From NCBI GenBank assembly GCA_000004985.1, contig GG738927.1: DNA of 64,000 nucleotides, one strand, 5' to 3'. The position numbers were made by a program, and so were the translations under genes. Of the stretch, positions 515 to 47,693 are shown piece by piece (position 1 is the first letter of the stretch; each line of letters starts with the position of its first letter). The stretch is from Naegleria gruberi. Taxonomy: Eukaryota. Below the pieces are notes generated by a model. It was given only the letters and a program-made list of their open reading frames with translations. It did not search any database and was not told the origin of the DNA.

Positions 515-1852
515 ATGCCAACCTGGAAAGAAAAAGCCAAAATATATTGGAGGTGAGTGTGTTTATAATATCTTTAAATATTTATTGGATTTTTATTCTA
601 AACATACGATGTGAATGTTGTGAAATGATAAAAGACATCCCGATATTCACGTCTACTGGAGAGCCATCCTTGCCGAATTGCTTGGAACCGCAATTGTAAG
701 TTATCAACTCGTTGAATTTTAATGGGAGAGAAAATTGATGAAAATCATGCAACTACAACCATGATGGGGTTGTGAATTAAATGATGCCCTTCTTGTAATC
801 TTCAAAAAATTGCATTTTCATTGCACTGCTACCAATGACTTATAGTTTGTCTTTCTGGGTACTTCGAGTGCTGTGTTTGCCAATAAGAATGAACCAGTAA
901 CTGTGGCATTGGGACATATTTTCGGATTGTTGGTGTGTATTCACATTTTCGGTCCAATTTCTGGAGCTCACTTTAATTGTGCAGGTTAGTAGTTGTGGGA
1001 TTTATGGATTTATTGATTTGGTTTTTGTTTAATGTTTGATGTGTAATTATTGTGTGAAATAATGAATAATGGATATTTATGGAAATTAATAGTTACTTTT
1101 GGAGCCCTTATTACAAGAAATATTGGTCTTGTATCTGGTATTGTGTATATGATTGCTCAAATTGTTGGAAGTATTGTTGGAGCTGCATTGACCACCTTAA
1201 TTGGTAAAACTGTTGTTCCAGGAATTTTCAAACCACCAGAAGATATTGATGATGCCTGGAGAGGATTTGCATTGGAAATTATCTTGACATTTGTTTTGGT
1301 TTTGGCTATATTTGGTGCTGCTGTCAAACCTCAACATTTCAAGAAATCTAATGGACTTCACTCAATTACTGGTTTGATTGCTGCCTTCCCCATTGCATTT
1401 GCTTTAGGAGCTGGTAAGTATTTGAATAATTTCAATAGTGATGGAATTTAATTTCTAAAGATGCTATGGCTGGTGCCTTAACTGGAGCTTCAATGAATCC
1501 TGCAAGAGCTTTTGTAAGTTTTCACACAAATTTCACAATTTACAAAATTTCCTTAACTTGAATTATTGAAATATTTGCTCAATTTTAACATTTACGAAAA
1601 CAACAGGGTCCACAAGTTGTTGGAGGTGTTTGGTATGCTCATTCATGGATCTATTATACAGCACCATTTATTGGAGCTGCCCTTGGAGCAATTGTTTATG
1701 AATTCTTACTTACCAAACCAAAGAAATTACAACACTACACTTCACTTTTACATATTAATACAAATTATGATGATTCAGATGATGAAAAGGATCAAGAAGA
1801 AGATCTTAGAAGCCAACAAAGCAATGCCTTATTATATACCACTAATCATTAA
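515..1852 (+). CDS. Aquaporin (MIP family) gene of about 285 aa, reconstructed as 6 exons: ~515-552, ~635-695, ~846-984, 1093-1413, 1461-~1513, 1607-1852
   Basis: Exon translations join in frame across GTGAGT/GTAAGT/GTTAGT donors and AG acceptors: ...YWRAILAELLGTAI | FVFLGTSSAVF...ISGAHFNCA | VTFGALITRNIGLVSGIVYMIAQIVGSIVGAAL... | DAMAGALTGASMNPARAF | GPQVVGGVWYAHSWIYYTAPFIGAALGAIVYEF...*. The first NPA box reads NCA, an N-C-A variant; the second NPA box (NPARAF) is canonical. Exon phases are consistent throughout (38+61 nt; 139 nt; 321 nt; 53 nt; 246 nt). The first exon and its ATG at 515 are the least certain part; the ORF-track ORF at 367-699 is in the wrong frame. Confidence 0.75.
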
Positions 1853-3185: not shown

Positions 3186-5561
3186 CTATTGCTGATTCCA
3201 TTTCCTCCAATAGCAAGTGAGTAGTGATGTAATGCAATAGGTAGAGATGGTATTTCTGAAAGATTGAATATTGGCTGTCTTGTGAGCTTCAAACTTTTCA
3301 TAGAGTTCAAACAGATTCTTAGATGGATAGTCATTTGGATCAATTAGCAAGTACTCTCTCAATTCTAAAATCTTTTCATTCAGTAATTCAATGAAAGTCT
3401 CATTGGAAATATCTGATTTGAAAATGTCAAAGATGGTGTGATATTTCTGTATTCTAAGGTTTTCGTTTTGATTTTGAAGGTCGTACATCCCTAATGAAAG
3501 AAGAGCCATGTTACAGATTACAAAATAAATAATTGAACTTACATTCATTCTCCTCTATTGCTGATTCTCTAATTAATTCATAAACAGAGGAAACTGTGTC
3601 AATGGTTGTGAGTTGACTCTTGAGATTATTCTGCATCATTGTCAAGAATTTCTTTCTTAATGGATCTGAATAGAACTCTTTCCACAGGTCGTGAAAGGAA
3701 GTACTTGTTCGATTCCTTAAAGGTTGATTCATCCACTAGAATGTTAATCTTCAATTGATTGGCCAATAAGCTCAAATTCTTTGCAATCACAGTTGACTCT
3801 GAAACAATTGAATAATATCTGAATGATCGTGTTCCCAAGTTTCCTACATGACAATTCTCATTCGTTGAAATTCCCATTGAAAAATTGAACGATTCCACCT
3901 TTTCTGAAGACAAATCTTGTTGAGTATTCAAAGCTTGGAATCCTCTCTTAACTTTAAGAGCAGTTACGGCAATGTGTTTATGTTCTCTTCCAGTATCGAA
4001 TACCAAAACATACTCTGATATGGAAACAACTTGTAAATTGGCTTGGAATTGTTGAGCTGCACTTCTAATGACAGATACTATTTTAGGGAATGTTATTGAA
4101 ATTTCCTCTATTGTGTGCATGTCAGTATATTGAGGGAGAGTAATATTCAAAACACTGCATTCCTTCTTGTTGAGACCCATCCTGAATAGAGAGCTGGTGC
4201 TTCCCTTAGAGGAGAGTGATGCTTGTCTCTTAATGAGACTTTTCGAATTGGAATGTTTGAAAGATGAATAGTTTGATCTATTATCTGATACGAAACCCTT
4301 AAATGACTGGTCTGCTGTTGATTTTGTGTCGATGGAATACTTTTCTGTGTTGGATATTGGTGCCTGTCCATGGTGGTGATTGATGAGGGATTTTCCATTG
4401 TTCAGCTCAATTAATTCCTTTTCAGTCTTTTCAATTTCGTCCAATTGATTAACAACAGTATCAGGGAGGAAACTCTTAATTTCCGATAGACATTTAACAG
4501 TGGCTGCCAAACTTTGATAAATACTTTCAATTTCAATAAACATTGAAGAGTTTCGTTTCACATTTGCCAAATCAAAAACTTGAATCAATGATAATTGTTT
4601 CTCCAAAAACAATATTGGTCTAATGGCTATTCGACTAAGTAAAATTCTATATAAAACACTAAACACCAAAATACCAAAAGCAACACAAATGGAAGCTATA
4701 ATACTATTGTGAGCTGTTTTGGAAATATCATCAGAATAGACAATAATAAACTGTCGCCATGCAATATTCTCATTGGTGTAATTAGAAACTGAAACAATAT
4801 AAGAAACACCTCCACTTGTAATTGAAAAGAAGGATGGCAAGTTATAAAAGTCATAGCTTACAGCAATTGACTTCATTAAAGCTCCTGCATTTCTATCTGT
4901 GAGATCAAAAACACTGAGGGCCTTCTTTCCATCCTCACTAGTTGTTCAAATACTTCCTGCAATAGTTGTTGGACCATTCATTTCAGTAAGAATTGTAACC
5001 TTGATCTAGAATTTTCACCTCCTTCAGAAAGTCAGAAAAGAGAATTAATGGAATTGTGCATCTGCAAATTCCTTGAATAATCTTACTTCCATTCATTCTC
5101 AAAATCAATGGATCGAATAAAGGAGTTGCATATGGAAGAGCAATACTTCCATTAATGATATAGAATGGAGATGAGAAAACTCCCTCAGTTTTCAATTTTT
5201 CAATATTTGTTAAGGTGTCCAATATTTCGTTTAGTAATTTGGATAAACGTTCTCCTTTTTGATTTCTTGATCTCGGTTCCAAATCTTCTGCTGATGTTGT
5301 AGATCTCTTTGTTGAGGTAGTTGTAATATTTGTGGATGTACATTCATTACATTGTAAACCAGCACTCTATTTAATTTCAATGGCTGGTTTTTTTGTTGAC
5401 TTTTTTGTTGTACGTGGATTAAATTCTGATGACTCATTGGACATTTCTGGTGAACTGTTACTGGCTCTATGAGTTTGACAATTTCTATATTTTTGAAAGT
5501 CTGTTTTGATTTTCTCGACTTGAATTGAGAGTTTGAATTGTTCGTATAATTTCTCTAACAT
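3186..5561 (-). CDS. Multi-exon receptor-like membrane protein with a degenerate class III nucleotidyl (adenylyl/guanylyl) cyclase homology domain
   Basis: Minus-strand ORFs at 5367-5561 (ATG at 5561), 4983-5282, 3626-4876 (416 aa), 3511-3732 and 3186-3548 lie collinear. The 416-aa block has a predicted TM helix (IIASICVAFGILVFSVLYRILL) followed by a segment with cyclase-domain architecture: CSVLNITLPQY ... SISEYVLVFDTG ... FSMGISTNENCHVGNLGTRSFRYYSIVSESTVIAKNLSLL ... ILVDES. The metal-binding Asp positions (F.DI.GFT and IGD.YM in active cyclases) read LNIT and ISEY here. Exon junctions are not resolved: two frames are open across 3626-3732. Confidence 0.45.
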
Positions 5562-5913: not shown

Positions 5914-6900
5914 ATGGATACCACTGATGAACCAGAGTTCGTATTTGACAATGACTACATCCAGCATGTAGATATTGCCATGGACTACGCTGACAGCGGG
6001 GAGTGTATTTTTTCTGATAATGAAGGCAATCTTCAAGGAAGTATTCACTTAATCACTGAAAGTCATACAAGCAAAACTTTGAGCGGCAGTGTGAAGAAAG
6101 CCATTCAAACTTCCTCCCGATCTGTGTGCCGTCTCTATGTACTATACAAGTCAGATTGTAATAAGGGTATAAGATCATTTGGTACAGCTTTCTTTGTATC
6201 TGAGTCATTATTAATGACTGCCCAACATTGCATCAAGCCTTCTCATACAATAGATGGGGTCGTGTACTTCTTAAAAAGTACATACATTGATCTTTCCTGT
6301 TGTTCTAGAGACTCACAATTTGAAATTGATGACTCTAGTTTGATAAAGAAGGTGCAAATTGTAGATAGAAGCAATTTTGAGAAAGATATCCAACAATTGA
6401 AGATGCCTGGAAAGGATGTTCCATGGAAGACTAGCAACGACTTCGCATTTCTAGAACTTGACCAAAGGAACCTCACCACCCCCTTCATACCTGTTGAAAC
6501 AACATTAGAGGGTAATCAGTGTTATGTTATTGGGTATCCCGGCACTATTTCTATTGAAAAATTCAAAAAGGATTATTGCAGAGATTTAGATGATACCAAA
6601 TCTAACCAATTGTGGGGAAAAGTTCAGCGTGAAATGGGCTATTTTGAATGCAAAATTGCCAGCCAAGGAACGTTTCAAGTTAAAACTGGAGATTATTTGT
6701 ACACACATAATTGTCCTACTTTGTGTGGAACAAGCGGTGCTCCGGTTGTAAATGAAAATGGGAAGTTAATTGGAATTCATGTGGGTGGAGACTATGCATT
6801 ACACAATAATTTCTGGATAACTATTTCCAATCAACATTTGAAGAGTGCTCTCATTTCTATGAAAGTTTGTTCTGATCAATCCTTTGTATCGCTCCAATAA
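5914..6900 (+). CDS. Trypsin-fold serine protease (S1 family, bacterial Trypsin_2 / glutamyl-endopeptidase-like), 328 aa, single exon
   Basis: Intron-less, ATG-initiated ORF. Catalytic triad contexts are present: LLMTAQHCI (His), NDFAFLEL (Asp), CGTSGAPVVNENGKLIGIHVGG (Ser). The last matches the GNSGSPV...VIGIHxGG pattern of staphylococcal V8/Spl-type proteases rather than the eukaryotic GDSGGP pattern. No N-terminal signal peptide is apparent (MDTTDEPEFVFDNDY...). Confidence 0.75.
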   Translation: MDTTDEPEFVFDNDYIQHVDIAMDYADSGECIFSDNEGNLQGSIHLITESHTSKTLSGSVKKAIQTSSRSVCRLYVLYKSDCNKGIRSFGTAFFVSESLLMTAQHCIKPSHTIDGVVYFLKSTYIDLSCCSRDSQFEIDDSSLIKKVQIVDRSNFEKDIQQLKMPGKDVPWKTSNDFAFLELDQRNLTTPFIPVETTLEGNQCYVIGYPGTISIEKFKKDYCRDLDDTKSNQLWGKVQREMGYFECKIASQGTFQVKTGDYLYTHNCPTLCGTSGAPVVNENGKLIGIHVGGDYALHNNFWITISNQHLKSALISMKVCSDQSFVSLQ

Positions 6901-7440: not shown

Positions 7441-9456
7441 TTATTGGTAGTGGAATTTGGTAGAAGAAGTGGGAATTACAGGAAGTTTGATTCTAGTTTC
7501 GGTACATTCGTGTGTAGAGAAATCTCTTCTCTTGATATCCTTGTGGCAAGAAGGACAATGAGTTTCATATTCTGAAAGATCAACTTGTTTGGCAACTTTA
7601 AGATCATATTCCAATTCATTTCCAGAGTGGCAGATTTGATTATGTTTGGAATAGTCGCATCTCTGTACGAGGCATCCACAATAGAGACAGATGATGCTCG
7701 AAGTTTTCAACCTGTTGGAAAGGTCTCTTCTCTGCTCTAGGATTTCATCAATTGATTGGGAATAGTCAATTGGCTTTACATTTTCGAGTGACTTATCCAT
7801 AAGTACTTGACTTTCTAACACTTGCAAGTCGACCTTATTTGCATATTTTGATTGCATGCTTTGCAGTGCTGGAGTGTGCTTTCTTGGCACGAGGCATACT
7901 TTTGCTGGTTTGGCATATCCAGACATAAACTCTAATAATTTATCCAATTCTGGGTTTTGTTCTCTGCAGTCGCCATATCCTCGAATACACAAACTCTTAA
8001 GGAATGAACGTCCTGCCCCGCCCTCTTTAAATACAAATAAAAGAGTCTCGATTAGTTTGGAACTCAATTCGCCATATGAAAAAGAACGAATGGATAGATC
8101 CAATTCCTCTAAGGTCTTTAAGGAATACAAGCTATTTTGCAACAAGTCAATATCATTTTCATTATCCACATGACATGAAAATAGCTTAATATTTGGGAAG
8201 TGTGTTATCCATCTATCTATTCTATTGGTAAAGAATGAACGTCCCTCCAATTTGAGTTCCAAAACATTTGGAAGTTCTTTCAGGTTTGGATCTGAGGTGA
8301 GGAATATTGGAGAGCTGTGTCTCATCAATGCAAAATCAAAGACACCGTCCAGATTTATGGACAGCTTCTTGACGCATTTGAATTTTGCTAAGAGTTCCAG
8401 AAAGGCCTTCGTCATTTCCACTGTATCAAAAATAGACAATGATTCTTCCCAATACGAATATTGAACTGTTCCAAGTGTAACTTCCAGCTCCTCCACAATA
8501 TTATTTGAGGTAGATGAGAGTTGATTCAACTGAGCTGCTTTGGTATAATTGAGATGAAGACTCAATTTCTTACAATTAGAAAGATTATTCAATTCAAAAA
8601 ACTTTGGTCCAATATACATTGATTCCAATACATTTGATGCAATACTATATTCAGTGTCATGATATAGATATTTGAGATTTTCAAATTCTGAAGTATTGGT
8701 AAGTAAAAAACCAGTGACATTGTCAAGGACTAGATTTTCCAACTTGTCCTTCACCCAATCAAAACACTGACAAAAAGGTTGATCAACCTTACATGTTTTC
8801 AATACTACTGTTTGTAAATTATCTTTACAAGCTTTGAATAAATTGCAAAATGCATTCGAATCAAAATTAAAATCCAACTTGATGAATGAACAATTGGTTG
8901 GATAGGATGTTTCCATTGAGAATGTTGGTTCTGTGAAATAGTTTGGCAAGTAGTTGACCACTCTTTGTGAAAATTCCTTCTTTCTTTGTTGATGAAGAGA
9001 TGGGAAATGAGTATTCCTTGGACGTGATGGAGCATACCTATCTAGATTAGCTTCCTGAATACTCCCATAGATGAATAGATTGAAAATCTTCATCCTATTA
9101 CTCTCCACAAACTTGTGCAAATACTTTACGAAGGGAATAATATCCTTCTCAATCATCATGTGTTTTTGATATTGCTCCTCCTTCTCACTACTAAATAAAT
9201 GATCAAAATCACCACCATACAAATCAATATTCGGATAGATGTGCAATGTATTAATTTGTTGAATGATAATTTCTCTCCATGATGAACACACCCGAGGAAT
9301 GATCATCATGATTGATCTAAAATCCAGATAGGATATGATTGAGTAGAGTACTTCTGGAGGAACCCTCGAATGAAACCAACCACCTGATCGTTGTTGCTCA
9401 TCTTCATCATTCTCTTCATGAATCGTTGTTCTTGTTATAGGAGATGAATTGAACAT
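7441..9456 (-). CDS. F-box protein with a C-terminal TRAF-type zinc finger (about 671 aa from the first ATG; the ORF track extends to 9480 with a non-ATG start)
   Basis: N-terminal F-box-like segment PPEVLYSIISYLDFRSIMMIIPRVCSSWREII. The long middle region resembles LRR-type F-box proteins. The C-terminus carries Cys/His clusters (CLYCGCLVQRCDYSKHNQICHSG ... HCPSCHKDIKRRDFSTHEC) typical of TRAF-type zinc fingers. Single exon. Confidence 0.65.
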   Translation of the reverse strand: MFNSSPITRTTIHEENDEDEQQRSGGWFHSRVPPEVLYSIISYLDFRSIMMIIPRVCSSWREIIIQQINTLHIYPNIDLYGGDFDHLFSSEKEEQYQKHMMIEKDIIPFVKYLHKFVESNRMKIFNLFIYGSIQEANLDRYAPSRPRNTHFPSLHQQRKKEFSQRVVNYLPNYFTEPTFSMETSYPTNCSFIKLDFNFDSNAFCNLFKACKDNLQTVVLKTCKVDQPFCQCFDWVKDKLENLVLDNVTGFLLTNTSEFENLKYLYHDTEYSIASNVLESMYIGPKFFELNNLSNCKKLSLHLNYTKAAQLNQLSSTSNNIVEELEVTLGTVQYSYWEESLSIFDTVEMTKAFLELLAKFKCVKKLSINLDGVFDFALMRHSSPIFLTSDPNLKELPNVLELKLEGRSFFTNRIDRWITHFPNIKLFSCHVDNENDIDLLQNSLYSLKTLEELDLSIRSFSYGELSSKLIETLLFVFKEGGAGRSFLKSLCIRGYGDCREQNPELDKLLEFMSGYAKPAKVCLVPRKHTPALQSMQSKYANKVDLQVLESQVLMDKSLENVKPIDYSQSIDEILEQRRDLSNRLKTSSIICLYCGCLVQRCDYSKHNQICHSGNELEYDLKVAKQVDLSEYETHCPSCHKDIKRRDFSTHECTETRIKLPVIPTSSTKFHYQ

Positions 9457-9949
9457 TTTTTTGATTCTGTCTTCAATCAATCAACTATTTAAATCCAACC
9501 ATTAACAACATCCATTGACTATCAGTTATCAGTTTTATGATCATTCCGATTCTGGTAAATTGTTTTCATCAAATCAAATCAATTAAAATTTTAATTACTT
9601 GAAATTCATCGATTAATTTTTTAAAATGTTGGCAACCACAATAAATGAGAGGAAAAGCAAAGAGTGAAATACAGAGAGAAAGGCGAGAGAGGAATTTGAT
9701 GTTTTGTTTTTGTTACAATTAACAGAACTTTGTTTGGAATGATGAGAAATGCTAAGCAGGTGCACAACAGAGGTCTACGATGATAGAGTGCGCTCAAAAC
9801 TACCAAGATCTGTCCTGACTCGATTTTTAACACTTTTTTATATTTCAAGTATGTCAATACTCAATTTCAAATCTTAGATCTTTCTGAATTAATTGAAATA
9901 AATTAAGGTTTATATATTTTACAATTGAAGATTGAGTTTGTACATGGGA

Positions 9950-11530
9950 TTAATCATTAGATCTACGCTTAGACATTGGTGAAATGAAGGATCTGAGAGC
10001 ATCAGCATTATTGGCTTGAGCAGGCTTTCTGTGATTGAGTGGAACATACTTTCTATGGTCAATACCAGTATAGACTTGCTTTGGTCTGAAAATCTTGACT
10101 TCAGGATCTTCCAAACTTTCAATCCAGTGAGCTAACCAACCAGCACATCTTGGAATGAGGAAAAGAACTGGATAATAGTCAGCTGGGAAACCTAAACACT
10201 TGTAAACCAAACCAGTGTAAAAGTCAACATTTGGATACAATTTACGTTCCTTAAAGTATGGATCATTGAGGGCAATTTGTTCGAGTTCAACAGCAATTTC
10301 AATCATTGGTTCCTTGCCCAAAACTTGGAAGACTTCATCGGCAACCTTCTTGACAATCTTGGCACGAGGGTCATATGAACGATAAATTCTGTGACCAAAG
10401 CCCATCAATTTCTTCTTTCTTTGTTTGACTTCTTCAATGAATTTTGGAATATTTTCCTTTGTTCCAATTTCTTCCAACATGTGAAGAACAGCTTCACAAG
10501 CACCACCGTGCAATGGACCATACAAGGCACCAGCTGTTAATTTACATTCCATTAAATTATTATAGAAATATTAAAATATATCATTTGATATTTTGATAAA
10601 TTACTTACATGCACCAGCAATTGAGGTGTATGGATCAACTCTACTACTGCTCAAGTGACGCATAGCAGCAGTGGAACAGTTCATTTCATGTTCTGCGTGA
10701 ATAATCCACAATTTTTCAAGAGCACGAGCAAGAACTGGATTTGGATGATAGTTGACTTCACTCAATCTGTCCAACATGTACAAGAAGTTACCAGTATAGT
10801 TAAGGTTATTGACAGGATTATTGTAAGGTTTACCAATTCTGTGACGATAAGCACTGGCAGCAATGGTTGGCAACTTTCCGAGAATACGATAAATTTGCTT
10901 AAATCTAAGTGAGTCAACCTTGACACAATCCTTATCAGCACCCTTCAAGAACAAATCAGATCCTTGGAGGGATGGATTAGCATCTTCATAGAAAGTACCC
11001 ATGGCAGCAATTGATGAAATAACCATTCCCATAGGGTGAGCATCATATCTAAATTGTTTCAACAAGGTGACCATGTTTTCGTGGAGATAGGAGTGTTTAG
11101 TAACTCTTTCTTCCCATAAATTCAATTGATTTCTATCTGGAAGTTCACCATTGATTAACAAGAAGGCAACTTCAAGGAATGATGATTTTTCGGCCAATTC
11201 TTCAATATCATATCCACGATAACGTAAAATACCTTTTTCACCATCAATATATGAAATACTACTTCTAGAAATGGCTGTATTCATAAATCCAGGATCCAAA
11301 CAAACAAGATCCAATTGTTCAAAAGCAACTGATCTGATGGCATTTCCTTCTTCTACATTAATTTTGATGATTTTTCCAGTCTTTGAATCCTTAACTTCAA
11401 GGAAACGTTTTTCACCAGGATTTGATGGAGCAGTAGCACTAGTCAAATTAGTGCTCAACATTTCTCCTCCAACAACTTGAGGCATCAAGTGTTGTTTAAT
11501 TGATTGCATTCTACGTTCAGCTGAAGACAT
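9950..11530 (-). CDS. Citrate synthase, 2 exons (11530-10609 and 10533-9950; intron about 75 nt with GTAAGT donor), about 501 aa; an N-terminal RMQSIKQHL nonapeptide resembles a PTS2 signal
   Basis: Exon 1 carries ...[26 protein letters not shown]... and exon 2 carries ...[23 protein letters not shown]...[18 protein letters not shown]...[10 protein letters not shown].... These are canonical eukaryotic citrate synthase motifs, including the GPLHGGA and GFGHRVY-type signatures. Exon 1 ends in phase 1 and the junction reads ...[16 protein letters not shown]. Residues 7-15 (RMQSIKQHL) fit the R-x-x-x-x-x-x-H-L spacing of PTS2 signals. Confidence 0.9.
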
Positions 11531-17810: not shown

Positions 17811-20800
17811 TTATTGCTTTGATGCTTTAAGACAGGTCATTAAAAATCTCATATTCTTGGCATTCTTAAGTTCTTGGAAGTACAACTTGTTCAAAGACTT
17901 GAAAGTGTGGTCAGCTGATGTGAAATCGCCTTGTAACATGGCATCACTCCACATTAAAAGTTCGTGAGCCAATGCATCATTGCTAGTTTCTTGTAAAAGA
18001 GTAAAGAGTGCATTCACACTTTGAGCAATCATTCTCTTCTTTTCCAAATGAGCAGCTCCCTTATCTTCTCCTCCATATAACTTATCGAAACTTTGAGTCA
18101 AACTATCTACAACATTTTGATATCTGGCACTTGTGACATTTCTTTCAATATCAATTCCAGCATACTTTTCCAAATTTTCTCTCAAAATGGCTTGTTGATC
18201 GACAACTGGTTGAATAACCATAGGTTGTTGAATAACTTCTGATTGTGGATTCAATGTTGGTGGCATTGTAACTTGTTGCCAAGTTGGAGTCATTGATGGA
18301 GAAGAATTGCTGCTACCTGTGCTTGGTGGCATACCTCCACCCATCATTGGTGGCATACCTCCCATTGGCATTTGGTTGGATTGGAATCCAGTGGATGGTT
18401 GAATTGGTTGTGGAGCAAATGTAGCCACACCTCCCAAATTATTATTTCCACTCATTGAATTCATTCCATATCCTCCCACTGATGGCATTCCTCCGCCCAT
18501 CATTGGTGGCATACCTCCACTCATTGAGTTTGATTGGAAACCAGTAGATGGTTGAATTGGTTGTGGAGTGAAAGATGCAACTCCTCCCAAATTATTATGA
18601 ATTGGATTATGAGTACTAGTTGGTTGATGATAGACAGGTGTTGTTGTTACAGGGTTATGGACTGGTTGAGTTACAGTAACTGGTTGATGCATGGCTACAG
18701 GCTTAGCAACAGCACCAGTTGGTGGAACGATGGCTCCTGAAATTGGGGAAACTGTTGGAAGTGGTTGAGGCAACAATTGAACATCAACCTTCTTGTATCC
18801 ACTACCTCCCAATTTCTTTGTATTGGTTGGTGAATCTGATCTGGTCGAAGAAGAGATTGTAGCACTTGAGCTTGGTGGAATAGAAGAAGCATGAGTTGTT
18901 GGAGTTGGTTGTGTTGTTTGTTGTGTTGGTTTCTTCTTAATCCAAGAACTTGGCATGGAAGGAGCCTTGAGACTTTGTGGAGCCTTACCAATGGAATGAT
19001 AAAGACGATATCTCAATTCTTGAATATCAACATTGGAATAATCCTTTGGAAGAATAATTGGTTGAGATGAAGTTTGGTCAATAGCAATATTCAAACAACG
19101 GAGAGCCAATGGTAAAGTCTTTTGAACATCAACCAAACTGCCCAATTCAATACATTTCATAGCAAATGTAATATAATATTGATTCAAAACATGACCATTT
19201 TGCAACATTTGATTCAAGATAGATTCAATGTATGAAATGGTAGTTGTCTTCTTGGAGATGGAGGCATAGGTGAGATGGTGTGTATGAAGTAATTCAATCT
19301 TGGAAATCAAATCAATGAGTCTGACAGCAAAATCTGGGCTTGATGTTGAAACACCTTCAATACTCTTTTCGAATTCAGAAATCCATCTGGTGAAGATTTG
19401 TTCAATTTGTCCAGAAAGGAATGAACCCAAGAGTGATCCTAGGAGATCATCTTCAGATTGTGGTTCATTTGGTCTATCAATGAGACGTTGTTCTTCCTTT
19501 TCAACCAAAGACTTGAGAACAGAATCGATCAAAGTCTTGTTCTTTGTCATATCCAAACAGAGAGTAGCAAGTTTTTCCTTCCAACTTTCTTCAGTATGGT
19601 TAAGAACAGCATCATAATTCTTATAGACAAGATCTCTCATGGCATTAATGACGGAACCTTCCTTACTATTCAAAAATTGTTCAACAACATAATTCCACAA
19701 TTCACTATTGCCAGTAACTTTGGCCAAAACTAAGGCATCAGAAAATCTGTTACCACTCAAGCAACAGTTGATGGCTCCTTGCATATTTCCAACAATAATA
19801 TTCTTCTTAATGAGTGTGCTCAATTCCTCAGAGTTATTTCTTTCGGATTCACTTGATTGAGGTTCAACAGTTTGAGATTGTTGTTGGATAGTTTCTCTAT
19901 TGTATCCTAACAATGATTGAATCTTCTTTCCTTTTTCTTCATCAGAAGTAAACAAAATTTCCAACAAATTCCATTCCATTGATTGGCTTTCAGATTGCTT
20001 TTGCTTACAATATTGAACGCAAAGATCTCTCTTTTCTTGTGGAGAAACTTGAGAAAGAACAATCTTTTCCAATTCAATAACTTGCTTATTGAAATCGAAC
20101 ATCTTTGGTGCATCAGATTCACTAACAGAAACAGAGGCAAGAGCAGAGGCACCACTGTAAATACGAATTGGATTTGGAGTCATGAATTGTTGAACTTGTT
20201 GGTGCTTTTCCAAACTATTTTCTTCACTTTCTTGCTTGATTGTGTTATTGAAAGCAATTAATCTATTTCCAAAACACCAAGAAACACCAGCTGGTCTCTT
20301 AAGCCATTTTGGTGCAGTCTTCAAAACTGAAGCAGTTGGTTGTGAAATATTCTTGACAGAGGCATTGAATGCATTGGATTCAACATTGACAGAACTTGGA
20401 TCTTGAACACTGTAAACTTGAATCTTCTTATCAAAAGAGCTTGTTGAAAGAATAGTTGATTTGTATGACCATTGGGCATCGAAAATCCATGGATATTCTT
20501 CTTGAGTATTAACTCTTCCCTTATTATTTCTATTGGATGATGAAACTTCAGAGAAACCAGTTGAAAGTTCTCCAAGTAAATCACCAGTATTAGGATTCCA
20601 AATAAGTGAACGATTGTCCTTACCACTACTGACCAAAAGGTTACTATCTTCACGACACCAACTAACACTCAAAACACCCTTTTGATGTCCTTGTTGAGCG
20701 GATCCGAGTTCTCTGATTGGAGCATAAGCCTTTCTCAAATCCCAAACTTCAATAACTGGTCTTTCATCATCCTCACAAGCTACTAATAATTGAGTATGAA

Positions 20801-21770
20801 TATCTGGATTCCAAGCAAGAGAACTGTATCTTGATCTTGGATGATTGGCATTACTGAAAGGAACAAGAACACGTTTTTGTCTCAAATCCCAAACAACAGA
20901 TGTTCCTTGATGAGATGTTGTTGCCAAAATATATTCGAATTTTTGATTCCATTGAAGATGAGAAATTGTTTGATTTTGATGTGGATTTTTACAACCCAAA
21001 ACAACAACACCAGGTTGTTCTGGTTGCTTCAAGTTCCAGATGAAAAGTTGTCCATCTTCACCAGCACTTGCCAATAAATTGACTTGTTTTGGATTAAATT
21101 CTAAGCCACGAACACTATTTTGGTGCTTATCAAGAGTAGCAACAAGAGCAGAACTTGTTGATGAAATTTTCTTTGTCTTGGAGTAAGATTCTACCATCTT
21201 GTTAACATCAAAAAGACTAATAGTACCATCAACTTGAGCACCAGCAACAATACCAAGTGATTCTCCTGTTGATCCCGGAGTACCCCAAGAAAGTCTGTTA
21301 AAACGATCAGGTGCTTCGATTTGAGCAACTAATTTTGGATGCTTTCTAGCAGCTTCCTTTTTCTTCTTTTCCTCTTCCTCTGTTGAGATTAATTCGTTTT
21401 GTTGATGAGTAGAACCCAATGATGAAAAGAAAGCTGATGAAGAACTATTTGAGAAGAAATCATCATCGTTACTTTGGAAAATATCTGATGAATCTGTTGA
21501 TTCTTGTTGTTGTTGTACGGATTCTTCTTCAACAGGGGTTTCTTCACTCTCTTCATATTTTGTGCTTAAACTACTGATTTGCTTTCCTGTAAAGCTTGGC
21601 AATATACTGTATATTTCTAAAGTTGCTCCAGTACCTGCTTGTTGACTAGATCTCAGCGATTCATTCCAATCCAACGAGCCAGCCAGAGAACCAACAGCCA
21701 TCAAATCGGTGTGGTCTTGAATAGGACACCAAGAAAGTGTACCAGACTTGTTAACGGAAGTGAGTCTCAT
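17811..21770 (-). CDS. sec31: COPII coat protein Sec31 (WD40 beta-propeller, alpha-solenoid, and Pro/Gly/Met-rich region), 1319 aa, single exon
   Basis: ATG at 21770 and TAA at 17811-17813. N-terminus MRLTSVNKSGTLSWCPIQDHTDLMAVGSLAGSLD... with WD repeats, as in Sec31. A central helical region is followed by a long PPMMGGGMPP / QPVTVTQPVHNPV proline-rich segment and a conserved C-terminal domain. The antisense ORFs inside this span (18534, 18695, 19300, 19458, 19907, 19983, 20321, 20841) are shadow ORFs. Confidence 0.85.
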   Translation of the reverse strand: MRLTSVNKSGTLSWCPIQDHTDLMAVGSLAGSLDWNESLRSSQQAGTGATLEIYSILPSFTGKQISSLSTKYEESEETPVEEESVQQQQESTDSSDIFQSNDDDFFSNSSSSAFFSSLGSTHQQNELISTEEEEKKKKEAARKHPKLVAQIEAPDRFNRLSWGTPGSTGESLGIVAGAQVDGTISLFDVNKMVESYSKTKKISSTSSALVATLDKHQNSVRGLEFNPKQVNLLASAGEDGQLFIWNLKQPEQPGVVVLGCKNPHQNQTISHLQWNQKFEYILATTSHQGTSVVWDLRQKRVLVPFSNANHPRSRYSSLAWNPDIHTQLLVACEDDERPVIEVWDLRKAYAPIRELGSAQQGHQKGVLSVSWCREDSNLLVSSGKDNRSLIWNPNTGDLLGELSTGFSEVSSSNRNNKGRVNTQEEYPWIFDAQWSYKSTILSTSSFDKKIQVYSVQDPSSVNVESNAFNASVKNISQPTASVLKTAPKWLKRPAGVSWCFGNRLIAFNNTIKQESEENSLEKHQQVQQFMTPNPIRIYSGASALASVSVSESDAPKMFDFNKQVIELEKIVLSQVSPQEKRDLCVQYCKQKQSESQSMEWNLLEILFTSDEEKGKKIQSLLGYNRETIQQQSQTVEPQSSESERNNSEELSTLIKKNIIVGNMQGAINCCLSGNRFSDALVLAKVTGNSELWNYVVEQFLNSKEGSVINAMRDLVYKNYDAVLNHTEESWKEKLATLCLDMTKNKTLIDSVLKSLVEKEEQRLIDRPNEPQSEDDLLGSLLGSFLSGQIEQIFTRWISEFEKSIEGVSTSSPDFAVRLIDLISKIELLHTHHLTYASISKKTTTISYIESILNQMLQNGHVLNQYYITFAMKCIELGSLVDVQKTLPLALRCLNIAIDQTSSQPIILPKDYSNVDIQELRYRLYHSIGKAPQSLKAPSMPSSWIKKKPTQQTTQPTPTTHASSIPPSSSATISSSTRSDSPTNTKKLGGSGYKKVDVQLLPQPLPTVSPISGAIVPPTGAVAKPVAMHQPVTVTQPVHNPVTTTPVYHQPTSTHNPIHNNLGGVASFTPQPIQPSTGFQSNSMSGGMPPMMGGGMPSVGGYGMNSMSGNNNLGGVATFAPQPIQPSTGFQSNQMPMGGMPPMMGGGMPPSTGSSNSSPSMTPTWQQVTMPPTLNPQSEVIQQPMVIQPVVDQQAILRENLEKYAGIDIERNVTSARYQNVVDSLTQSFDKLYGGEDKGAAHLEKKRMIAQSVNALFTLLQETSNDALAHELLMWSDAMLQGDFTSADHTFKSLNKLYFQELKNAKNMRFLMTCLKASKQ

Positions 21771-38018: not shown

Positions 38019-39497
38019 ATGCAAACAAGGGTCGTACTGTCGGACTTTCAAACTCTTGATGATTCATCACTGTTTCAATTATTTGAAAAGATGAAACATA
38101 AACTTTCAACAGCTAGAAAATCAAAAAGAAAATTCTTGGAAAATCGAATGAATATTGCTTTCGGATACATTCCCATAGAATTTTACAAAGATAGGGAATA
38201 CGTTTTGGCATCCATCAAGAAGAATGGCTCTCATTGTCTCTATGATATTCATCCAGAAGCCTTCTCCGATCGTGAAATTCTATTCGAAATGTTAAAATCC
38301 CTTAAAAATGATAATTTTGCATCTGTTCCAATTGACAATGAAATATTGAAACCATTTGCTAATGATCGTGAAATTGTCAAATTATTAATTCACCTAGATT
38401 CTTCTTTCTTTGACAATCAAAAATTCAAATTCGATAGAGAAATGGCTCTATTGGCATGCATTTCATGTTCAGATAACTGTTTCGGGATTAGTACGGAGTT
38501 TATGGAGGATGAGGAGTTTGTTTTGAGTGCTATTGAGGAGAATTATTCAGTATTCAATACAACAAGTGATAAATTGAAAAATGATAAAGCATTTATTAGA
38601 AAGGCATTGAAGAGAAATGGAAAGGTAATTTACGAGTTGAGTGATGAGCTGATGGGTGATGAGGAGCTCATTAAGATTGCTATTGAACAAAACCCAATGG
38701 TATTCGAAGCGATATATGAAAATGAGAGTATTAATTGTGGAGCAGATGTTATCAAGATGGCTGTCGAGAAGAATGGACAGTTATTGCAATTTGTGACGGA
38801 AGATTTGGAGAATTTTGATAGAATTGCAGTGAAACAGAATCCATTGGCATTGGATTATGCAAGTGATCAATTGAAAAATGATAGAGATAGTGTTCTGGAA
38901 GCTGTCAAAAAGGATGGATCTTGTTTTGTTTATGCATCTGAAGAATTGAGAAGTAATTCTTCATTCGTGCAAGAGGTAATTGATAATTGTGCAATTCCAA
39001 AGGAAAGCAATGAAATGCATCACGTTCTACTCCTCATTTTGAAAGAAAAAGGATATTGCCCTACCTCTGTCTATGAAGCATTGAGAAATATTGATAAGGA
39101 ACTTGCTTTGAGAATAGTTAGCATTCATGGAGAGATGATTTGTATAATGGTCGATTGGCAGAATGATAGGGATGTGTTACTGACAGCATTTGAAACATGC
39201 ACTTCATCTACAGGAAGAAAACGTATCTGCTCAAATATTTATATTACTGATAAGGAGTTAATTTATGAGATTTTTGTAAAATATTCCACTGATATTATAG
39301 GTCAAATTTATGAATTGGATGTTGAATTGTTGAGAAGATTGCTTCAAATTGATGGTTCTGCATTTCGTTTAATGGATGGAAAGTTTAAGGATGAACCTAT
39401 ACTGATTGAAGAAGCTTGGAAACAAAGTGGATATGTTGATGGGCCATCTGATGAATTATATACGAAACGTATGGAATATGCCTATCCAGAATTGTAA
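38019..39497 (+). CDS. DUF4116-repeat protein (492 aa), single exon
   Basis: Repeated ~35-aa units of the form D(R/K)E(F/I)VL.A(I/V)(K/E).NG..L.Y(A/I)S.EL.ND(R/K) (for example DREYVLASIKKNGSHCLYDIH, DRDSVLEAVKKDGSCFVYASEELRSN, DKAFIRKALKRNGKVIYELSDELMGD) match the DUF4116 repeat family. Confidence 0.7.
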   Translation: MQTRVVLSDFQTLDDSSLFQLFEKMKHKLSTARKSKRKFLENRMNIAFGYIPIEFYKDREYVLASIKKNGSHCLYDIHPEAFSDREILFEMLKSLKNDNFASVPIDNEILKPFANDREIVKLLIHLDSSFFDNQKFKFDREMALLACISCSDNCFGISTEFMEDEEFVLSAIEENYSVFNTTSDKLKNDKAFIRKALKRNGKVIYELSDELMGDEELIKIAIEQNPMVFEAIYENESINCGADVIKMAVEKNGQLLQFVTEDLENFDRIAVKQNPLALDYASDQLKNDRDSVLEAVKKDGSCFVYASEELRSNSSFVQEVIDNCAIPKESNEMHHVLLLILKEKGYCPTSVYEALRNIDKELALRIVSIHGEMICIMVDWQNDRDVLLTAFETCTSSTGRKRICSNIYITDKELIYEIFVKYSTDIIGQIYELDVELLRRLLQIDGSAFRLMDGKFKDEPILIEEAWKQSGYVDGPSDELYTKRMEYAYPEL

Positions 39498-46512: not shown

Positions 46513-47490
46513 TCAGGTCTCATTTTGAAATGAATTTCCCAAATTGACTGTAACTCCTTTCTGTAATTTCTTAATTAGAATATCTGGTTTGGTGAAGAGT
46601 ACTATTTTTCTTGTGTCCATTAATTCTGGAATACTGTTCATAAATTTAAACATCCTTTTGGTATCTTGAATTCTCAAAGTTTGCGAATCATCTTCAGCTA
46701 GATATTGATCTATCTCTGAAAGTGAGATCACCAAAAAGATTGTTTCTGGCATGGAAGCCAAAGACTGCATCCATGTTCTTCTTTCAGTTCTAGCCCCTCC
46801 CACATCCCTGAAATAGCCATACCTGAATTCAAATTGTTTGCTTGAATTTGTACATTCATAACACCACGTCAAAGGAAGAAAGCTTTCGTTTGGATTTTCA
46901 ATATTTTCCAAGAATTCTGGTAAATTTTCCAGCATTTGAAGGTTCAGTCTTGAATGTAAATTGATGCTATTTTTGTGTTCATTGCAATATTGTGAAATAT
47001 TTAAACTTATTTCATTCCATCTAATTTCGTATAATTCTCGCATATTTGGAATTTTCCAAACATGGATTAATAATTCACAAAAATCAAAATTAGAAACTTG
47101 TGGAAAGGAATCGAATAAATCCCAATCTTTTATCCTGATAATTTCCTCAATTTTATCCAAAGTCGATTCAAATCTCTCTAAAATCAACCCTTTCATTTGC
47201 TTTCTTTCACTTTCTTCCAAAATACTCCACAATTTTCCCATCATTGAACAACAAGCATACTGCAAATCATGCTCAAACTCTATTTTACTCGAATAAAACC
47301 ATTCCTTCCTCAAAATATGTTTTGCCAAATAATACAATGTTGATTTTCCACTATTGGCTGTTCCAAAAAGTGAGCAGCCCTCACCTATTTTTCTCCTAAT
47401 GGGTTGTTGTTGATTGGTTGCATCCGAAGGCAGTTGTTGCTGCTGATGATGATGATTATTTGGTATCGGATGTGATTGTTGTGCTCCCAT
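46513..47490 (-). CDS. Divergent heterotrimeric G-protein alpha-subunit-like protein (about 325 aa from MGAQQS), apparently lacking the canonical C-terminal TCAT/receptor-binding region
   Basis: MGAQQS (myristoylation-type start), P-loop FGTANSGKSTLYY (compare GAGESGKST), a ~190-aa helical insertion, switch II FRDVGGARTERRTWMQ (compare FDVGGQRSERKKW), and IVLFTKPDIL in place of LFLNKKD. The ORF stops 30 aa later. No Galpha C-terminal motifs were found in the adjacent minus ORF at 46208-46510. Confidence 0.55.
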   Translation of the reverse strand: MGAQQSHPIPNNHHHQQQQLPSDATNQQQPIRRKIGEGCSLFGTANSGKSTLYYLAKHILRKEWFYSSKIEFEHDLQYACCSMMGKLWSILEESERKQMKGLILERFESTLDKIEEIIRIKDWDLFDSFPQVSNFDFCELLIHVWKIPNMRELYEIRWNEISLNISQYCNEHKNSINLHSRLNLQMLENLPEFLENIENPNESFLPLTWCYECTNSSKQFEFRYGYFRDVGGARTERRTWMQSLASMPETIFLVISLSEIDQYLAEDDSQTLRIQDTKRMFKFMNSIPELMDTRKIVLFTKPDILIKKLQKGVTVNLGNSFQNET

Positions 47491-47693
47491 TTTTTTCTCT
47501 AAGGAAAAGTTCACCATCTTTTCTTTTCAATTTTTTGTAATTTTTGATATAGTTTACAATAAATAGCAGCTCATATATTAGCAATTATTGAGATCATTTT
47601 TGAACATTGTTGCATACTGGACGGAAACATAGAACAAATCGTTTCTTTTCCAATTCCAGTTCAGAAAAAATTGTCACAACCATAACCACCACC

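Follow-up and report, generated by a model that had tools for sequence, protein, structure and literature searches.

What does a 416-amino-acid (aa) open reading frame (ORF) of Naegleria gruberi encode: a nucleotidyl cyclase, a catalytically dead relative of one, or the remains of a gene? The ORF is on the minus strand of a 64,000-nucleotide (nt) stretch of nuclear DNA on contig GG738927.1, which we refer to as the window and whose positions are used throughout. It falls in a span (3186–5561) that an earlier interpretation, referred to here as the sequence-only reading, had described as a receptor-like membrane protein with a degenerate class III cyclase homology domain (CHD). We find that the domain is homologous to class III cyclases, that it and its 63 closest relatives are predicted to have lost catalysis, and that the locus is likely to be a divergent paralog of a Naegleria/Willaertia receptor-like family, present as a 5′-truncated, reading-frame-damaged and probably non-functional copy.

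Cyclase homology and predicted fold

The homology of the query is visible only through its relatives, through single-sequence phmmer searches of a large library, or through structure. The search with the PF00211 profile that the sequence-only reading had proposed as a check gave no match for this ORF even at E≤1, nor was there one at that threshold for its C-terminal 192 aa. Read strictly, and for this sequence taken singly, that outcome would refute the sequence-only reading by its own terms. Pfam hmmscan of the ORF together with four neighboring minus-strand ORFs likewise gave no Guanylate_cyc match at E≤1 and nothing relevant, and phmmer of the ORF against all PDB sequences found nothing. 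A word-indexed protein search with the ORF returned only the protein itself (100% identity to the NCBI entry 'predicted protein [Naegleria gruberi]'), and the same type of search with a family alignment (A1, see below) gave no scoring match; the word index is limited in this respect, and the result does not mean that homologs are absent.

When the ORF was searched exhaustively with phmmer against 1.84 billion cluster representatives, 293 proteins were identified at the cutoff of E≤1e-3, including 27 at E≤1e-30. The best of these are 820–870 aa long, and the query aligns to their positions ~330–720. The same single-sequence search reached bacterial cyclases at whole-library E-values of 1e-6 to 1e-10; query aa 300–410 is the top-scoring stretch, at 1e-6 to 1e-8, and in one of these cyclases, the metagenomic protein P0106, the matched stretch falls within the PF00211 segment. 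Alignment A1 was made from the C-terminal domains of the query and 41 relatives (42 in total), with every canonical cyclase left out, and its profile matched 38 distinct PDB sequences, all of them class III nucleotidyl cyclases. The best match is Pseudomonas aeruginosa CyaB (3r5g; E 6.1e-11), with the whole domain covered, and others include soluble adenylyl cyclase AC10 (E 1e-10), Cya2, bPAC/OaPAC, rhodopsin-GC, AC8, AC5, AC9 and soluble guanylyl cyclase (sGC). Taken one at a time, 22 of the 42 A1 domains match PF00211 at E≤0.01, with a best value of 1e-11, and there is no recurrent match to another family; the query belongs to those without a match, and one relative, P0021, scores 27.2 bits against a gathering cutoff of 21.9.

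Structure prediction, also suggested in the sequence-only reading, points the same way. An AlphaFold2 model of aa 225–416 built on A1 has a mean predicted local distance difference test (pLDDT) score of 90.2 and a predicted template modeling score (pTM) of 0.84, and its top 50 Foldseek matches in the PDB are without exception catalytic domains of cyclases. The best is Synechocystis Cya2 (2w01), with E 8.5e-11, a TM-score of 0.69–0.71, a root-mean-square deviation of 2.2–2.6 Å and sequence identity of 12–17%; CyaB and CyaC also match, at TM-scores of ~0.7. We regard the class III homology of the query domain and its beta-alpha-beta-beta-alpha-beta cyclase fold, as modeled, as established, and the family profile matches and the AlphaFold model bear out the proposal of a membrane-anchored protein with a cytosolic class III CHD.

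Catalytic positions in the query and its relatives

To read the catalytic columns, we took two canonical bacterial enzymes as references, the metagenomic P0067 and P0099 (from a Lentisphaeria metagenome-assembled genome, MAG), and aligned them with the query and 63 relatives; the two enzymes match PF00211 with E-values of 1.7e-19 and 6.4e-32, respectively. All six canonical catalytic positions are replaced in the query (Table 1). The sequence-only reading had described the metal-binding Asp positions and the GDxY motif as substituted, citing LNIT (aa 243–246; 4150–4139) and ISEYVL (aa 286–291; 4021–4004); both motifs are in the 416-aa ORF, and alignment with the canonical enzymes puts T246 at the first Asp position (Asp 1) and S287 at the second (Asp 2). 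Neither Asp is brought back by any correction of the gene model.

The relatives show the same pattern. Asp is not present at the Asp 1 position in any of the 63 (Arg is in 19, Lys in 15, and Thr in 9), and the canonical residue is kept in two relatives at the substrate-defining Lys, in six at the transition-state Asn, and in four at the transition-state Arg. The Asp 2 position is Asp or Glu in 33 of the 63, and a Glu adjoins it in most. In no family member (query plus 63 relatives) is the metal-binding (C1-like) set complete, nor is the substrate/transition-state (C2-like) set. Complementary C1-like and C2-like half-sites among paralogs are ruled out at the level of sequence, since no member holds either full set, and because no member keeps one complementary half-site, heterodimers formed inside the family would be unable to rebuild an active site. 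In a motif scan that covered the 150 best cluster representatives, canonical motifs are absent from ranks 1–64 (the cluster of the query plus the 63 relatives closest to it) and are present only from rank 65 on. The matches sampled from rank 65 onwards are Pfam dCache_1-(HAMP)-Guanylate_cyc proteins, and those with names are bacterial MAG proteins.

There are near-invariant features in A1 at non-catalytic positions, including the structural GN[LI]G hairpin, the Asp in ILxDE, and the RPV[DE]R strand. The catalytic columns are variable across the family, a signature of released catalytic constraint. From these substitutions we infer that the query domain is unable to make cyclic AMP (cAMP) or cyclic GMP (cGMP), and, as judged from the alignment, the catalytic loss is not peculiar to the query gene and is common to all 63 of the closest family members examined. 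The view that the cyclase fold is kept and its activity lost is supported on both counts, the fold by the model and by homology, and the predicted inactivity by the residues.

A receptor-like family in Naegleria and Willaertia

The named relatives are from N. lovaniensis, N. fowleri, N. gruberi and Willaertia magna, and further ones are from metagenome contigs. Examples include NAEGRDRAFT_50581 (P0006), N. lovaniensis C9374_012592 (P0002) and N. fowleri FDP41_013308 (P0005); the UniRef entries from the latter two species carry the name 'Guanylate cyclase domain-containing protein', and the N. gruberi member EFC43501 is annotated as 'Adenylate/Guanylate cyclase'. The best relatives share 34–37% identity with the query, and paralogs share 26–40% with each other, with one apparent ortholog pair at 54%. 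Full-length members are ~820–870 aa and consist of a short cytosolic N-terminus, a first transmembrane helix (TM1), a dCache-like extracellular sensor, a second transmembrane helix (TM2), and a cytosolic part containing, in order, a HAMP-equivalent segment, a transducer helix, a low-complexity linker (55–100 aa), the CHD, and a helical tail. Nine of 18 family ectodomains match dCache_1 (best E 7e-7, mostly under the cutoff of 45 bits), and an ectodomain profile searched against the PDB gave weak chemoreceptor dCache matches only (E 0.07).

The query contains the membrane-proximal end of this arrangement. Its first 150 residues align nearly gap-free to the bacterial enzymes P0067 (320–457) and P0099 (255–381), in which Pfam identifies the end of dCache_1, then HAMP (387–438 and 316–367, respectively), with the CHD ~10–30 residues further on. 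The first 55 residues also align to the ectodomain end of full-length paralogs. Residues 57–80 are the sole hydrophobic stretch in the ORF with a Kyte-Doolittle score above 2, and the earlier description of a 416-aa ORF with a single transmembrane helix holds; an N-out/C-in orientation is suggested because the C-terminal side of the helix is Arg-rich. Pfam HAMP does not match the query or any of 28 family members and a profile of the HAMP region found nothing significant in the PDB, and we therefore refer to this segment as HAMP-like. The transducer helix can be compared directly, with SEIKSFLPDTVVNQL in the query and KKYVPANLVRQL in the bacterial enzymes.

All members have a tail of ~100–130 residues 3′ of the CHD that starts with an invariant E-W inside the motif DEW[LM]YEL. 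A tail profile found no relative in the PDB or Pfam, its matches there being confined to designed helical repeats and isolated single entries. In a model of the CHD and tail of the intact paralog NAEGRDRAFT_50581 (pLDDT 89, pTM 0.88), the hairpin FITKPVDRILLEG followed by NVYELVKEKAV completes the CHD sheet (strand VYELxKE), and four helices come after it. Solved cyclases superpose only on the CHD part of this model, with target-normalized TM-scores of 0.80–0.83 over ~200 columns. The corresponding values for the query model are 0.66–0.69, and this less complete superposition is probably because the annotated ORF is without the last CHD strand and the tail.

On balance we lean slightly toward the view that these proteins form a sizeable, conserved family of receptor pseudo-cyclases, in which the catalytic residues were lost before the Naegleria/Willaertia split and the domain was kept under selection with a new DEW[LM]YEL tail, and of which the query locus is a truncated member and possibly a sensor-less modulator. 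We infer that the full-length members are ligand receptors, and the substitutions suggest that the family probably signals without catalysis. A ligand would bind the dCache sensor, and the signal would be relayed by TM2 and then by the HAMP-like segment to a dimer of CHDs; this dimer would make no cyclic nucleotide and would work jointly with the helical tail as a docking module or conformational switch.

We note two irregularities in family gene models. The model of N. lovaniensis C9374_012592 (PYSW02000005.1, 3733–3801), annotated as intronless, contains an in-frame 69-nt GTATGT...AAG stretch that is translated as VCYYSTVGSRCTIKSRFLVTMMK right after DEWLYELQ and is absent from the N. fowleri ortholog; it is probably an unannotated retained intron. 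The N. gruberi model P0180 (NAEGRDRAFT_54524; 2154 aa) shares a 90% cluster with a 654-aa family member and may be a merged model of a pseudo-cyclase receptor and neighboring genes.

Gene model and lesions of the locus

The G+C content of the window is 26–38%, mostly ~34%, and genes are compact and on both strands. At 34–36% G+C (~7% stops per codon) we estimate from base composition that an ORF of 416 codons would arise by chance with P ~1e-13. A family hidden Markov model (HMM; 23 full-length members, 829 positions) was mapped onto stop-to-stop translations of the region, and is colinear over 5207–3234 (profile positions 223–820), spread over three frames (Table 1). Within the 3186–5561 span, it is the part from 3189 to 5207 that is colinear with one protein family; the receptor-family profile found no homology within 5208–5561. 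Profile positions 1–222, corresponding to the N-terminus, TM1 and the first half of the sensor (~660 nt), have no match in the region or elsewhere in the 64-kb window, and a search for a second paralog elsewhere in the window found none. The distance from 5207 to a divergent trypsin-like peptidase gene at 5914 is ~700 nt, so there is no room for the missing 5′ third of a receptor gene. A 64-aa ORF (MLEKLYEQ..., 5367–5561, minus strand) has no receptor-family or Pfam match; it ends at a TAG, beyond which the sensor remnant follows in the same frame, and it may be a new 5′ exon, untranslated sequence or noise.

There are two unambiguous lesions upstream of the ORF. At the first of these (4994) the window reads CAA GGT TAC A ATT CTT ACT GAA where homologs have QRGY-V-LLTE, and no intron can bridge this position because the flanking residues are contiguous in homologs. 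The second is an in-frame TGA within a conserved segment. Introns that would skip these lesions were considered and rejected: homologs align straight across both, and the only GT..AG pairs there are 13–16 nt or leave the TGA in frame. In place of a complete double-PDC dCache_1 sensor between two transmembrane helices, the locus has the last ~55 aa of one and ~85 disrupted upstream codons.

The 3′ end is also irregular. The annotated 416-aa product extends 22 residues past RPVER; the final CHD strand and the tail lie beyond its end, in other frames. Two frames had been noted as open at 3626–3732, and this is correct, with ORF 3511–3732 overlapping ORF 3626–4876; the other minus-strand ORFs given for the span (3186–3548, 4983–5282 and 5367–5561) are present as listed. 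As mapped by the family profile, the switch between 3665 and 3624 requires either a 1-nt frameshift or an atypical intron. The only donors available are weak, GTTCTA (3676) and GTGGAA (3685). Introns from the 3685 donor (34, 55 or 67 nt) would remove the conserved RPVER motif; those from the 3676 donor (46 or 58 nt) keep it, and this donor is unlike the GTAAGT and GTATGT of the family. Intron positions were compared with those of the N. lovaniensis paralog only, which has no intron at the frame-switch site. Further downstream the tail exon is genuine, because removal of a 52-nt intron rebuilds the invariant Trp codon and the exon is open to the family's usual end.

The locus does not contain a full-length uninterrupted family coding sequence, and it does contain disabling lesions of the pseudogene type, namely the two unambiguous ones and the 5′ truncation. 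The locus is not an intact receptor gene, with its 5′ part absent and its frame damaged.

Status of the locus and alternative explanations

A recently inactivated pseudogene is the most likely status of the locus as judged from its sequence, because this copy has lost its N-terminus, TM1 and the first half of its sensor, what is left of the sensor is interrupted, and the last CHD strand and tail are reached only via a frame change. Branch length is uninformative here, because paralogs differ from each other as much as from the query. There are several points that weigh against this or other parts of our interpretation. The central 427 codons (4945–3665) are free of lesions and retain the family invariants (A1 G10, G121, N122, G124, D158 and P173), the lesions are only in parts that are dispensable after 5′ truncation or at the 3′ junction, and the frame switch at 3665–3624 may be an atypical intron and not a lesion. 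The HAMP identity assigned to aa 81–131 comes from transitive alignment, and the predicted catalytic inactivity from residues. Family CHDs may also bind some metal or nucleotide, since about half of the family is acidic at the Asp 2 position and most members have an adjoining Glu. With lesions confined to the remnant and the 3′ junction, a truncated gene that is still used fits about as well as a very young pseudogene. We nonetheless consider it unlikely that the locus is a functional truncated gene, translated from Met4876 and perhaps continued across the frame switch and the 52-nt intron into the tail, for a total of ~530 aa, and similarly doubtful that its product is an N-out/C-in pseudo-cyclase that pairs with full-length paralogs or active cyclases and tunes their signaling, with the upstream lesions lying in the 5′ untranslated region. 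The lesion-free codons and conserved residues favor such a gene, as does the position of both certain lesions within the 90-codon sensor remnant (P ~0.02 for two random ones by our estimate), the open tail exon with a canonical intron that rebuilds the Trp codon, and the fact that the genome annotators called the ORF as a gene. However, the annotated ORF ends before the last CHD beta-strand, with the lower TM-scores noted above, the tail is reachable only by a frameshift or the poor GTTCTA donor, the closest paralog examined is intronless at the frame-switch site, and there is no close ortholog, the best relatives being those at 34–37% identity. Translation from Met4876 would yield a pseudo-cyclase fragment that is anchored in the membrane but has no sensor; if expressed, it would at most modulate full-length paralogs by pairing.

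Two further explanations seem much less probable than that of a truncated gene. One is that the real gene is intact and full-length, with the frameshift, the stop and the missing 5′ part all being sequencing or assembly errors. The lesions are few and a single assembly was seen, but three independent kinds of defect would all have to be errors, ~660 nt of coding sequence are absent with only ~700 nt between 5207 and the peptidase gene, and the remainder of the window reads as clean genes; we regard this as very improbable. Still less credible is an active cyclase with non-canonical residues, in which the Glu beside the Asp 2 position and other migrated residues catalyze the reaction. E288 does adjoin the Asp 2 position, an acidic residue is at that position in 33 of the 63 relatives, and some characterized class III enzymes tolerate unusual substrate-defining residues. 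However, class III cyclases depend on both Asp residues for their two-metal mechanism, none of the 63 relatives has Asp at the Asp 1 position, where Arg or Lys predominates, and across the family neither the substrate Lys nor the transition-state Asn and Arg is conserved, all three positions being variable. A damaged pseudo-cyclase paralog is the interpretation we prefer.

Feature coordinates and neighboring genes

Table 1. Features of the proposed pseudo-cyclase locus, with positions in the 64,000-nt window.
Feature	Position	Strand	Basis or remark
416-aa ORF	3629–4876, stop codon 3628–3626	minus	matches family-profile positions ~333–706
Upstream sensor remnant, other frame (..EGVFSSPFYIINGSIALPYATPLFDP...FLKEVKILDQGY)	4995–5207	minus	profile positions 223–292
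Frameshift, 2-nt deletion (single A in place of codon)	4994	minus	direct reading and homologs
In-frame TGA inside conserved IAGSI*TT	4948–4946	minus	relatives have GSINTT or GSIKTT
C-terminal remnant of dCache-like sensor, aa 1–55 (..GVSYIVSVSNYTNENIAWRQFIIVYSDD)	4712–4876	minus	alignment to dCache_1 end of P0099 and P0067
Transmembrane helix, aa 57–80, equivalent to family TM2	4637–4708	minus	hydropathy and alignment
HAMP-equivalent segment, aa 81–131 (RIAIRPILFLEKQ...IEIESIYQSLAATVKCL)	4484–4636	minus	alignment to P0067 387–438 and P0099 316–367
Transducer-like helix, aa 132–150, SEIKSFLPDTVVNQLDEIE	4427–4483	minus	conserved with KKYVPANLVRQL of bacterial enzymes
Low-complexity Ser/Asn/Lys/His-rich linker, aa 151–232	4181–4426	minus	between transducer helix and CHD
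CHD, aa 233–404, ends RPVERVLFR, without final beta-strand	3665–4180	minus	profile, model, Foldseek
Metal Asp 1 (D) replaced by Thr246, T of LNIT, codon ACT	4139–4141	minus	alignment
Substrate-defining Lys (K) replaced by Val283, codon GTT	4028–4030	minus	alignment
Metal Asp 2 (D) replaced by Ser287, S of ISEYVL, then Glu288, codons TCA GAG	4013–4018	minus	alignment
Base-recognizing T/D replaced by Ser356, codon TCA	3809–3811	minus	alignment
Transition-state Asn (N) replaced by Val363, codon GTG	3790–3788	minus	alignment
Transition-state Arg (R) replaced by Asn367, codon AAT	3778–3776	minus	alignment
Frame-switch zone, frame 0 left at 3665, frame 1 resumed at 3624	3625–3664	minus	family profile
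Frame-1 segment LKSQLTTIDTVSSVYELIRESAIEENE(W), last CHD beta-strand and start of DEW[LM]YEL	3543–3624	minus	beyond annotated stop
52-nt intron, GTAAGT...TTAG	3491–3542	minus	splicing rebuilds Trp codon (T/GG) of DEWMYDL, W invariant in family alignment
Tail exon (W)MYDLQNQNEN...PND...WNQQ, family helical C-terminal domain	3189–3490, stop 3188–3186	minus	profile 731–820
Family profile 223–292	5207–4995	minus	63 bits, i-Evalue 2e-19
Family profile 294–308	4993–4949	minus	weak
Family profile 310–706	4945–3665	minus	380 bits
Family profile 703–729	3624–3544	minus	weak
Family profile 731–820	3488–3234	minus	40 bits, i-Evalue 1e-12

The immediate upstream neighbor of the locus is the divergently transcribed trypsin-like serine peptidase gene (5914–6900, plus strand; Trypsin_2, E 3e-16), followed by a gene coding for a 679-aa F-box protein (7441–9480, minus strand). 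Elsewhere in the window, a 334-aa ORF (46513–47517, minus strand) is another signaling gene, encoding a G-protein alpha subunit domain (PF00503, E 2e-27), with no evident link to the pseudo-cyclase locus, and a 492-aa ORF (38019–39497, plus strand) contains DUF4116 repeats (E 3.5e-49). A 1319-aa ORF (17811–21770, minus strand) has an N-terminal WD40 propeller and a weak match to the Sec16 Sec23-binding TPR domain (PF12931, 23.1 bits, cutoff 22), and is possibly a Sec31/Sec16-like coat component. Two ORFs code for partial domains and are presumably single exons of intron-containing genes: 1050–1451 (plus strand) has part of a MIP/aquaporin domain (profile positions 73–172 of 222), and 10601–11530 (minus strand) has only the C-terminal domain of citrate synthase.

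Implications for Naegleria cyclases

Naegleria is cited in genome papers for its exceptional number of membrane adenylate/guanylate cyclases, which is taken to indicate rich environmental sensing through cAMP and cGMP, and at least 81 cyclases have been counted, without comment on catalytic residues (PMC9928731). We did not find the family described as pseudo-enzymes in the searchable literature, whose coverage is incomplete, and the pseudocyclase-type terms that occur there do not concern protists. The labeling of these proteins as cyclase-domain proteins in databases was already known; what is new is the family-wide catalytic death, as predicted from the residues, and the conserved tail. If the family is non-catalytic, then Naegleria cyclase counts and the signaling capacity inferred from them need correcting, and part of the often-quoted 80–100+ Naegleria 'cyclases' would not be enzymes. 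The class III cyclase scaffold would then have an output mode independent of cyclic nucleotides, and Naegleria would offer a natural, expanded set of receptor pseudo-enzymes with output via a conserved helical tail, a tractable system for the role of a dead cyclase domain. The annotated 416-aa model is a fragment of what appears to be a damaged paralog and should not be counted as a cyclase.

Comparison with known systems

In mammalian membrane adenylyl cyclases (C1/C2) and sGC (alpha/beta), degenerate half-sites serve regulation, one example being the forskolin site. By analogy, these proteins resemble the Naegleria family in having CHD subunits that are missing part of the catalytic set; however, their complementary halves form one active site, whereas both halves are lost in every family member. 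LapD is a bacterial transmembrane receptor with a HAMP domain and dead GGDEF and EAL domains. It offers a closer functional parallel, as a membrane receptor whose HAMP-type relay leads to a nucleotide-cyclase-type domain that is catalytically dead and serves for switching or binding, although the domain family and ligand logic are different.

The closest comparisons are with the Naegleria/Willaertia paralogs and with bacterial dCache_1-TM-HAMP-class III cyclases. The paralogs are colinear with the query over profile positions 223–820 (34–37% identity) and share the same degenerate positions and the same tail motif, but their genes are full length and open, whereas the query is without positions 1–222 and has a frameshift, a stop and a frame switch. 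The bacterial enzymes (e.g. Lentisphaeria MAG protein MCJ8331522.1, which is P0099, and the metagenomic P0067 and P0106) have intact chemistry, whereas all catalytic and substrate residues are replaced in the Naegleria family, and the family has a linker of 55–100 aa between the transducer helix and the CHD where the canonical bacterial enzymes have none. The query copy is in addition without TM1 and most of the sensor, and the conserved helical DEW[LM]YEL tail of the family is without counterpart in solved cyclases. The bacterial enzymes nonetheless share with the family the same domain order, with direct alignment across the sensor end, the transmembrane helix and the HAMP or HAMP-like segment, the transducer helix pattern K-x-[FY]-[LV]-P-x-x-[LV]-V-x-Q-L, and the CHD fold (solved for CyaB, 3r5g, and Cya2, 2w01) with its GN[LI]G hairpin motif.

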